A stretch of 24,000 nt of DNA. It comes from Dactylosporangium sp. NPDC049525. Its GTDB lineage: Bacteria > Actinomycetota > Actinomycetes > Mycobacteriales > Micromonosporaceae. A program made the position numbers and the translations under genes. The DNA is taken from contig NZ_JBFAPO010000056.1 of assembly GCF_040676755.1 (NCBI RefSeq), forward strand, positions 42,988 to 66,987, read 5' to 3'. Below are positions 6,875 through 7,373 of this stretch, one piece after another; within the stretch, counting starts at the first letter, position 1, and each line of letters starts with the position of its first letter. The notes beneath the pieces are model-generated. The model was not told the origin of the DNA, did no database searches, and worked only from the letters and a program-made list of their open reading frames with translations.

Positions 6875-7373
6875 CGGCCGGGGCAAGGCCAGCGGCAAGC
6901 TGATCCGCGCGGCGCTGCGCTCCCTGCGCAAGACGAAGAAGCGCCGTCGCGGTCACCCGGACGCGGTGCCGACCCGCCGGGCGGCGCCGCCACGGCAGGC
7001 GTCGCACGCCGCCCGCCGGGAGGCGGACCGGGCGCAGGCCGGTGGGCGCACCAACGGTACCGCCGAGGCGGTCACGACCGCGGACGGCCGGCACACGGTG
7101 TCGACGCAGAGCGGCGCCGGGTATCCGCTGCACCGCCGGGTCGAGGGGACGATCAACACGATGCCGCCCGGCCAGCGGGCAGACTGGCACGGTGAGTGTG
7201 CGCTGCCGCAGGCGCTGTCGCGGATGCTGGACCGGGGCATCGACCCGACCGGTGGTGCGGTCGGGTCGGCGCGGATCCGTGCGCCGGGGCACCGGATGCA
7301 CGGCACGCAGATCCCGCCGTGCCCGAGCTGCGCGCCGCTGATGAGAGAGTTCAACCTGAGGGAGGCGATGTGA
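6867..7373 (+). CDS. Deaminase-like toxin: basic/Pro-rich linker plus a roughly 100-aa core with a zinc-binding H-x-E...P-C-x-x-C signature
   Basis: The ATG at 6867 overlaps the upstream stop (ATGGCTAG). The N-terminus KLIRAALRSLRKTKKRRRG and an Ala/Pro/Arg-rich stretch look like a linker. The core contains W-H-G-E-C-A (His 7188-7190, Glu 7194-7196) and P-C-P-S-C (Cys 7320-7322 and 7329-7331). An immunity-type gene follows with a 4-nt overlap. Confidence 0.5.
   Translation: MASGRGKASGKLIRAALRSLRKTKKRRRGHPDAVPTRRAAPPRQASHAARREADRAQAGGRTNGTAEAVTTADGRHTVSTQSGAGYPLHRRVEGTINTMPPGQRADWHGECALPQALSRMLDRGIDPTGGAVGSARIRAPGHRMHGTQIPPCPSCAPLMREFNLREAM

Follow-up and report, generated by a model that had tools for sequence, protein, structure and literature searches.

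We analysed a 24,000-nucleotide (nt) stretch of DNA from Dactylosporangium sp. NPDC049525 (RefSeq assembly GCF_040676755.1, contig NZ_JBFAPO010000056.1, forward-strand positions 42,988 to 66,987), referred to here as the window and numbered from its first nucleotide. At 6867-7373 it holds a gene for a toxin of the YwqJ-like deaminase family, followed directly by a SUKH-3 immunity gene. Most relatives of this toxin carry the triplet C-x-E at the start of helix 2 of the deaminase fold, with a zinc-ligand cysteine and the catalytic glutamate; the window toxin and about one fifth of the relatives are Glu-less, with a leucine or another hydrophobic residue in place of the glutamate. The Glu-less members carry a glutamate in strand 1 of the fold, residue E67 of the window toxin. 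The features of the toxin gene are as follows.

6867-7373, plus strand: toxin gene, 168 amino acids (aa); Pfam PF14431, 31.3 bits; orthologues 55-99% identical
6867-6992, plus strand: basic N-terminal region (residues 1-42), in which AlphaFold2 (AF2) predicts a K/R-rich helix spanning about residues 6-29
6993-7370, plus strand: deaminase-fold domain, residues 43-168, from the AF2 model and Foldseek
7065-7067, plus strand: codon of E67 in strand 1, candidate relocated catalytic glutamate; Glu in 29/29 Glu-less members with a residue there and in 0/115 C-x-E members
7188-7190, plus strand: codon of H108, a histidine three residues ahead of the Cys ligand; His in 158/159 aligned relatives, of both types
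7197-7205, plus strand: C111-A112-L113, zinc-ligand triplet of helix 2, where Leu takes the place of the catalytic Glu; aligned on C-A-E in 130/159 relatives and on the G-[VI]-C-A-E of human and mouse cytidine deaminase
7299-7301, plus strand: codon of H145, which lies in the insert that separates strand 3 from the CxxC; His in 148/159 relatives
7314-7331, plus strand: P150-P151-C152-P153-S154-C155, helix-3 PCxxC zinc-ligand motif; C152 and C155 invariant, aligned on P-C-G-A-C of cytidine deaminase

Residues 61-163 of the toxin match positions 13-137 of the 138 in PF14431 (YwqJ-like deaminase) with an E-value of 2.7e-7 and a score of 31.3 bits, the curated cut-off being 25.9 bits. The Pfam scan of the toxin gave nothing further except a spurious low-complexity match, and the NCBIfam scan gave no match for the toxin, for the WXG100_2 protein encoded upstream of it or for the SUKH-3 protein. 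Searched against 1.84 billion representative proteins, a profile built from close homologues recovered 332 relatives with E<=1e-3; their lengths range from 100 to 3370 aa, and the deaminase domain is nearly always at the extreme C-terminus. Relatives recovered with the toxin's own profile also match PF14431, and the names given to such proteins by NCBI are 'YwqJ-like' or 'YwqJ-related putative deaminase'. A word-indexed database yielded 11 close homologues, all of 147-172 aa and from Micromonosporaceae. The column counts given here were taken over about 160 (159) aligned relatives and the tail lengths over 156.

An AF2 run on a 76-sequence alignment of the domain gave a predicted local distance difference test score (pLDDT) of 95.8 and a predicted template modelling score (pTM) of 0.88. 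The elements follow the order helix 1 (residues 43-58), strand 1 (63-70), strand 2 (77-81), an insert helix (90-96), helix 2 (112-122), strand 3 (131-138), helix 3 (153-161) and a strand 4 of three residues (165-167). This model superseded an earlier run on 12 close sequences, which was unstable (pLDDT 81.7 down to 50.3) and gave weak Foldseek matches. When the model was compared by Foldseek with the Protein Data Bank (PDB), the first 19 places were all taken by cytidine or blasticidin-S deaminases, the best being 4f3w_D (probability 0.99, TM 0.57/0.60). At the sequence level, the family profile also reaches the cytidine deaminases of human and mouse (E 0.012-0.014), placing G-x-C-A-E on G-[VI]-C-A-E and P-C-x-S-C on P-C-G-A-C. 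A single-sequence search of PDB sequences returned a spurious match to a sialidase; the family profile was needed to reach cytidine deaminase. The domain has the three-layer alpha/beta/alpha core of the cytidine deaminase-like fold, in which helices 2 and 3 each bring zinc ligands at their N-terminal ends.

Two inserts interrupt this core, one at 82-111, which contains the helix at 90-96, H89 and the invariant H108, and one at 139-151, which contains H145-G146. Inserts before helix 2 and before the CxxC are listed traits of the YwqJ clade, as are a helix-2 signature, 'Gx[CH]xE', and the truncation of several members after helix 3 or strand 4 (Iyer et al. 2011). In our relatives the median number of residues past the CxxC is 12, and it is 20 or fewer in 148 of the 156. 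At about residues 43-168 the toxin has a YwqJ-like deaminase fold in compact form, with a natural truncation past helix 3. The toxin has the PF14431 score, the CxxC at helix 3, the inserts, the truncation and the polymorphic-toxin context of the YwqJ family, in which a SUKH-3 or Imm6 gene for immunity accompanies a WXG-type (type VII), RHS or similar trafficking part. It lacks the Glu of Gx[CH]xE, having L113 there instead, and is therefore classed as a member of a divergent subclade rather than a canonical YwqJ-like protein.

A first-pass annotation, made from the window's letters and open reading frames, had proposed much of this outline. Its motif positions, its 168-aa reading frame and its 13-residue tail all agree with our direct reading: W107 is encoded at 7185-7187, H108 at 7188-7190, G109 at 7191-7193, E110 at 7194-7196, C111 at 7197-7199, A112 at 7200-7202 and L113 at 7203-7205, P-C-P-S-C occupies 7317-7331, and the stop is reached 13 residues past C155. 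The Foldseek check on an AlphaFold model that it called for returned a deaminase fold and no non-deaminase placement. The short C-terminus, which it regarded as odd, turns out to be typical of the family, given the tail lengths of the relatives and the truncation recorded by Iyer et al. 2011. Among the toxin clades that it named, the YwqJ-like assignment stands through PF14431. The SCP1.201-like or DddA-like assignment falls: the [HD]xEx[KQ] helix-2 motif is absent, neither family is matched, and DddA is only a remote structural neighbour (6u08_E, rank 47, TM 0.26). Its view of the locus as a deaminase-superfamily toxin paired with SUKH-type immunity is upheld by PF14431, by the AF2 model and Foldseek, and by a PF14433 gene downstream. 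We regard the family, the fold and the toxin-immunity module, a YwqJ-like deaminase-fold toxin with SUKH-3, as very nearly certain.

Across the relatives the helix-2 motif reads [WFY]-H-G-x-C-A-E-P, with H108, G109 and C111 essentially invariant. Position 110 varies among K, G, R, A, N, Q, E and H throughout the family, and in the 11 closest homologues it is E in two and N, H or Q in nine. Of the 159 relatives, 130 have C-x-E at 111-113 and the other 29 have C-x-[LFMY], and Glu is absent from position 113 in all 12 close homologues. Glu-less and C-x-E members have in common the zinc ligands together with R104, H108, G109, P114, H145-G146 and PCxSC. The expected zinc-ligand motifs are those of C111, C152 and C155, and L113 stands at the canonical position of the catalytic Glu; we have scarcely any doubt that the window toxin is in the C-A-L register and has no canonical Glu. 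H108 and H145 are near-invariant in members of both types, yet they are not canonical zinc ligands; substrate binding, a second metal and charge balance for the Cys3 site are possible roles for them.

A column-by-column comparison of Glu-less with C-x-E members showed that one position, 67, switches completely. In the strand-1 segment G-T-A-E67-A-V it is Glu in all 26 Glu-less members with a residue there, and Ala, Gly or Ser in the C-x-E members, with Glu in none of 115 (Fisher 6e-29, phylogeny ignored). An independent MAFFT alignment gave the same split (11/11 Glu-less versus 0/65 C-x-E). Three Glu-less proteins retrieved later, P0161-P0163, also read A-E-A ... C-G-L and raise the count to 29/29, and a newly retrieved C-C-E protein has Gly at 67. 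Among the members compared there were no intermediates, whether with Leu and no E67 or with both glutamates together. Neither YwqJ-like toxins lacking the Glu nor the strand-1 glutamate turned up in our literature search.

Position 67 is also coupled to helix 2 within the C-x-E members, where Gly occupies it in 15 of the 17 members that have C, V or F at 112 and in 14 of the 92 that have Ala there (Fisher 8e-9, phylogeny ignored). This co-variation in size points to direct packing of residue 67 beneath the opening turn of helix 2. In a weak alignment to the Burkholderia pseudomallei cytidine deaminase 3dmo, position 67 falls on an Ala of the strand-1 V-G-A-A motif. In cytidine deaminase structures the V-G-A-A face of strand 1 looks towards the helix-2/helix-3 side and lines the active-site floor. 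On these alignments, E67 may be a functional replacement for the helix-2 glutamate that yields an active deaminase, to which we give a little less than an even chance.

The toxin gene lies in a cassette with four other genes.

5541-6050, plus strand: first cassette gene, YbaB/EbfC-like protein, 169 aa; PF02575, E 1.3e-6; conserved ahead of the toxin in Dactylosporangium and Micromonospora loci
6054-6377, plus strand: small protein, 107 aa; same position in homologous loci L001, L005, L007 and L008, and a 107-aa gene in the same slot of L014
6380-6874, plus strand: WXG100_2-domain protein, 164 aa; PF25547, E 5.4e-12
7370-7801, plus strand: SUKH-3 immunity gene, 143 aa; PF14433, E 1.9e-23; its GTG start overlaps the toxin stop (GTGA)

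The whole order, YbaB-like, 107-aa, WXG100_2, toxin and SUKH-3, is conserved, and the cassette is present in at least nine genomes. Dactylosporangium sp. NBC_01737 has it with a toxin that is 99% identical, and six Micromonospora species and one actinomycete metagenome-assembled genome have it with toxins that are ~60% identical. The genome scan, run with the close-homologue alignment A1, reached only the Micromonosporaceae group and one Polyangiaceae fragment. The WXG100_2 protein is presumed to be the trafficking part for type VII secretion, encoded apart from the toxin; in one relative, P0065, a WXG100/WXG100_2 domain is fused to the deaminase domain. The 107-aa protein had no family match in Pfam or NCBIfam and is possibly a helical secretion helper. 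Together with the YbaB-like gene it recalls the small helical helper proteins encoded upstream of LXG toxins. In the N-terminal basic helix of the toxin itself, K22, K24, R26, R28 and G29 are invariant among close homologues, and the stand-alone C-G-M relative P0072 has a similar basic N-terminus; this helix could bind nucleic acid or dock to the WXG100_2 partner.

The WXG100_2 stop and the toxin start overlap by exactly 8 nt (RTGGNTAG/TAA; window 6867-6874). The overlap is kept in nine loci and in L014 (5001-5008 in L001, 3001-3008 in L005, 4001-4008 in L014; also L006-L011), that is, in every locus examined, across Dactylosporangium, Micromonospora and Pseudonocardiaceae genomes. It suggests simple translational coupling, which is our default reading. 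The two genes differ by +1 in frame, and we considered a programmed frameshift that would fuse WXG100_2 to the toxin; no recognisable slippery site was seen at the conserved overlap.

Wherever context was available, SUKH-3 directly follows the Glu-less toxin (the window, L001, L002, L005-L011, P0073, P0012, P0072 and P0161). Glu-less domains also form the C-terminal tips of the RHS protein P0041 and of the PT-HINT proteins P0142 and P0101. The ratio of nonsynonymous to synonymous substitution rates (dN/dS) of the toxin gene is 0.08-0.33 among the Micromonospora orthologues, so the gene is maintained under purifying selection. In Streptomyces GCA_000718955.1 (L015 5001-5895, P0161), a C-G-L-type toxin with SUKH-3 lies downstream of a 2407-aa RHS/PT-HINT gene, at a distance of ~3 kb, and adjoins a phage-type integrase; the N-terminus, ...LVHNC, is a HINT splice-like end. 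This is a typical spare toxin-immunity cassette. In Micromonospora sp. MH99 (L012 3001-3135 and 3238-3624), toxin residues 104-148 alone are recognisable and the SUKH-3 gene downstream is intact, as if the toxin had decayed and left its immunity gene behind as an orphan.

The flanks of the window cassette are ordinary chromosomal genes. On one side (1943-5160) are a HisKA_3 kinase and a LuxR-type response regulator; on the other (7803-12509) are convergent genes for an NmrA protein, a TetR protein and a GH92 glycosidase that has two F5/8 type C domains. None of these five flanking genes, the ones examined, was identified as belonging to a secretion system, the rest of the 24-kb window not being annotated.

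Neighbour-joining placed the Glu-less members in two clusters, C-A-L (Micromonosporaceae and metagenomes) and C-G-[LFMY]. The clusters were joined in 1 of 100 bootstraps, and the nearest neighbours of each are different C-x-E members; the alignment behind the tree is short and its support low (65% for C-A-L, 19% for C-G-x). The C-G-M member P0072, from a Pseudonocardiaceae genome, has the split WXG100_2/toxin cassette, the 8-nt overlap and the basic N-terminus found in the window, and this shared architecture argues for common ancestry of C-A-L and C-G-M members.

The best overall explanation, to which we give a probability of about 0.5, is that the gene encodes an active toxin whose catalytic glutamate has moved to strand 1, within a five-gene polymorphic toxin-immunity cassette. 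The proton-shuttling glutamate would have been relocated to E67, beneath the first turn of helix 2, from where its carboxylate would activate the zinc-bound water and shuttle protons, with L113 filling the vacated space. The toxin would leave the producer by a type VII secretion system together with its WXG100_2 partner, the product of a separate gene, perhaps aided by the YbaB-like protein and the 107-aa protein. In the target cell it would still be a zinc-dependent nucleic-acid deaminase, acting most likely on cytosine in single-stranded DNA (ssDNA) by analogy with YwqJ; in the producer the SUKH-3 protein would bind and neutralise it. By extension, a widespread and unrecognised subclade of YwqJ-like proteins, found in Micromonosporaceae, Pseudonocardiaceae, Streptomyces and some RHS/HINT toxins, might consist of active deaminases that dispense with the helix-2 glutamate and take one from strand 1 (E67), possibly with an altered substrate or sequence-context preference. 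We put this wider proposal forward tentatively.

Several points weigh against relocation to strand 1. The placement of E67 at the zinc site comes from sequence comparison, and a carboxylate rising from the sheet toward three Cys thiolates could be electrostatically unfavourable; E67 could also serve as a fourth zinc ligand, closing the site. The structural matches, though consistent, have weak Foldseek E-values of 0.06 or higher. Activity of the Glu-less members would be carried over from YwqJ, the only family member assayed, and the sole pointer to type VII secretion is the neighbouring WXG100_2 gene. The pairing of E67 with L113 may stem from a single ancestral event, and since one or two origins are both possible, the perfect association cannot be counted as many independent events.

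The rival that survives best, which we consider unlikely, is a pseudo-deaminase. Catalysis would have been lost with the helix-2 Glu, leaving a zinc-stabilised module that binds nucleic acid or protein, comparable to ADAT3/Tad3; E67 would be structural, for example as a fourth zinc ligand or in a buried salt bridge, and any toxicity would be non-catalytic. Bacillus subtilis YwqJ is an ssDNA cytidine deaminase in which E539A abolishes both deamination and killing dependent on the type VII secretion system (preprint PMC13648612), so the family prototype cannot kill without catalysis, and L113 (or F, M or Y) stands where the mutated Glu of YwqJ would be. Inactive deaminase-fold domains are well known, several of them in Iyer 2011, and E67 is placed at the zinc site by sequence comparison. 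Against this, RHS and PT-HINT toxins would not be expected to end in a dead warhead, every locus examined keeps a dedicated SUKH-3 immunity gene, dN/dS argues against decay, and all zinc ligands are retained along with R104, H108 and H145. For these reasons we favour the view that the Glu-less domains are still working toxins.

Somewhat less probable again is repurposed chemistry, in which the zinc site was kept while the changes from Glu to Leu and from Ala to Glu altered the reaction or the substrate (another base, RNA or nucleotide targets, or a hydrolysis other than deamination). The pocket has been remodelled in a coordinated way at 67, 112 and 113 throughout the subfamily, and deaminase-like folds can carry other activities, such as that of the JAB peptidases (Iyer 2011). 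We saw no new motif typical of another enzyme class, however, and the rest of the pocket (R104, H108, G109, P114, H145 and PCxSC) is the same as in C-x-E members.

The first-pass annotation had taken H-G-E as the canonical register, with H108 as zinc ligand and E110 as catalytic glutamate, and had offered as its alternative that C111 is the ligand and that Leu replaces the Glu. H-G-E is literally present at 7188-7196, H108 is invariant, and members with H-x-E exist in the YwqJ clade (Iyer et al. 2011). Since position 110 varies and C111-A112-L113 falls on C-x-E, as in 'Gx[CH]xE', the H-G-E reading is a coincidence. Position 110 is N, H, Q, Y or R in other Glu-less members, H108 is equally invariant where a complete C-A-E follows three residues on, and the cytidine deaminase alignment puts C111 on the ligand Cys. 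We consider an H-x-E register highly improbable; it was the alternative that proved right. A zinc-ribbon-like look-alike, also raised there, has a CxxC and a short length in its favour and is excluded, with hardly any residual probability, by there being only one CxxC, by C111 lying at a helix N-terminus in an alpha/beta model of high pLDDT with the order strand 1-strand 2-helix 2-strand 3-helix 3, by the PF14431 match, by structural matches that are all cytidine or blasticidin deaminases at the top, and by the profile alignment to cytidine deaminase.

To our knowledge, the glutamate of [H/C]-x-E is regarded as the catalytic hallmark of every nucleic-acid or nucleotide deaminase, and base-editor mining uses it to judge whether homologues are 'active'. 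If the E67/L113 swap gives an active enzyme, motif-based filters discard a whole clade of ~125-aa toxin deaminases, and the superfamily gains an example of catalytic-residue relocation; the cytidine deaminases and their kin would then have their first rewired active site, within a domain of ~125 residues. If the domain is inactive, the puzzle is why purifying selection would maintain a dead RHS/HINT warhead alongside a dedicated immunity gene. In both cases the register is corrected, and the residues of interest shift from the non-conserved E110 to E67 and L113. What is already known is that YwqJ-like deaminase-fold toxins are accompanied by SUKH-3 immunity; such systems were described in 2011 (Iyer et al. 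2011), and the prototype has since been characterised.

Comparison with known systems sets the window toxin among both distant analogues and close kin, and we take the most distant first. WNK kinases are a conceptual analogue only: their catalytic lysine is supplied from a neighbouring strand, a relocation that is structurally proven, whereas the relocation in the window toxin is inferred and the two are unrelated in fold and chemistry. In ADAT3/Tad3 the helix-2 glutamate is replaced by Val and the zinc ligands are kept, so that, as in the window toxin, a hydrophobic residue stands for the helix-2 Glu beside an intact set of ligands. We know of no compensating Glu described for ADAT3/Tad3. ADAT3/Tad3 also differs in being the housekeeping partner of an active subunit rather than a toxin warhead with its own immunity gene, and Tad3 is catalytically inactive (Iyer 2011).

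DddA and other SCP1.201-like toxins, and SsdA, resemble the window toxin in being secreted interbacterial toxins of the deaminase fold with cognate immunity proteins. They belong to other Pfam families and keep the Glu in an H/D-x-E motif, and DddA is no more than the distant structural match given above. The CDD/CDA clade (homotetrameric cytidine deaminases and blasticidin-S deaminase) provides the best structural matches, and shares the Cys3-type zinc site and the C-terminal hairpin division (Iyer 2011). In contrast to the window toxin, cytidine deaminase has the catalytic Glu and strands 4-5, takes free nucleosides as substrate and is not a toxin; the window toxin has inserts before helix 2 and before the CxxC and lacks most of strands 4-5.

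The YwqJ/YwqK system of B. subtilis is closer. Its toxin is of the same Pfam family, PF14431, and is likewise the C-terminal toxin of a type VII-associated polymorphic toxin locus, with small helical helper genes upstream, an immunity gene downstream and a zinc-ligand motif followed by a Cys pair. It differs in having H537-x-E539 and a modelled five-stranded sheet (PMC13648612), where the window toxin has C111-A-L113, a strand-1 Glu and 3-4 strands, and in being fused to LXG and PT-TG domains (PMC13648612), where in the window WXG100_2 is a separate, overlapping gene. Most similar of all are the C-x-E members of the subfamily itself (P0014, P0015 and P0018), which are 40-50% identical over the domain and include RHS and WXG100 fusions. 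They share R104, H108, G109, C111, P114, H145-G146, PCxSC and the truncation ~12 residues past the CxxC, and they differ in having Glu at 113 and Ala, Gly or Ser at 67, where the window toxin has Leu and Glu, respectively.

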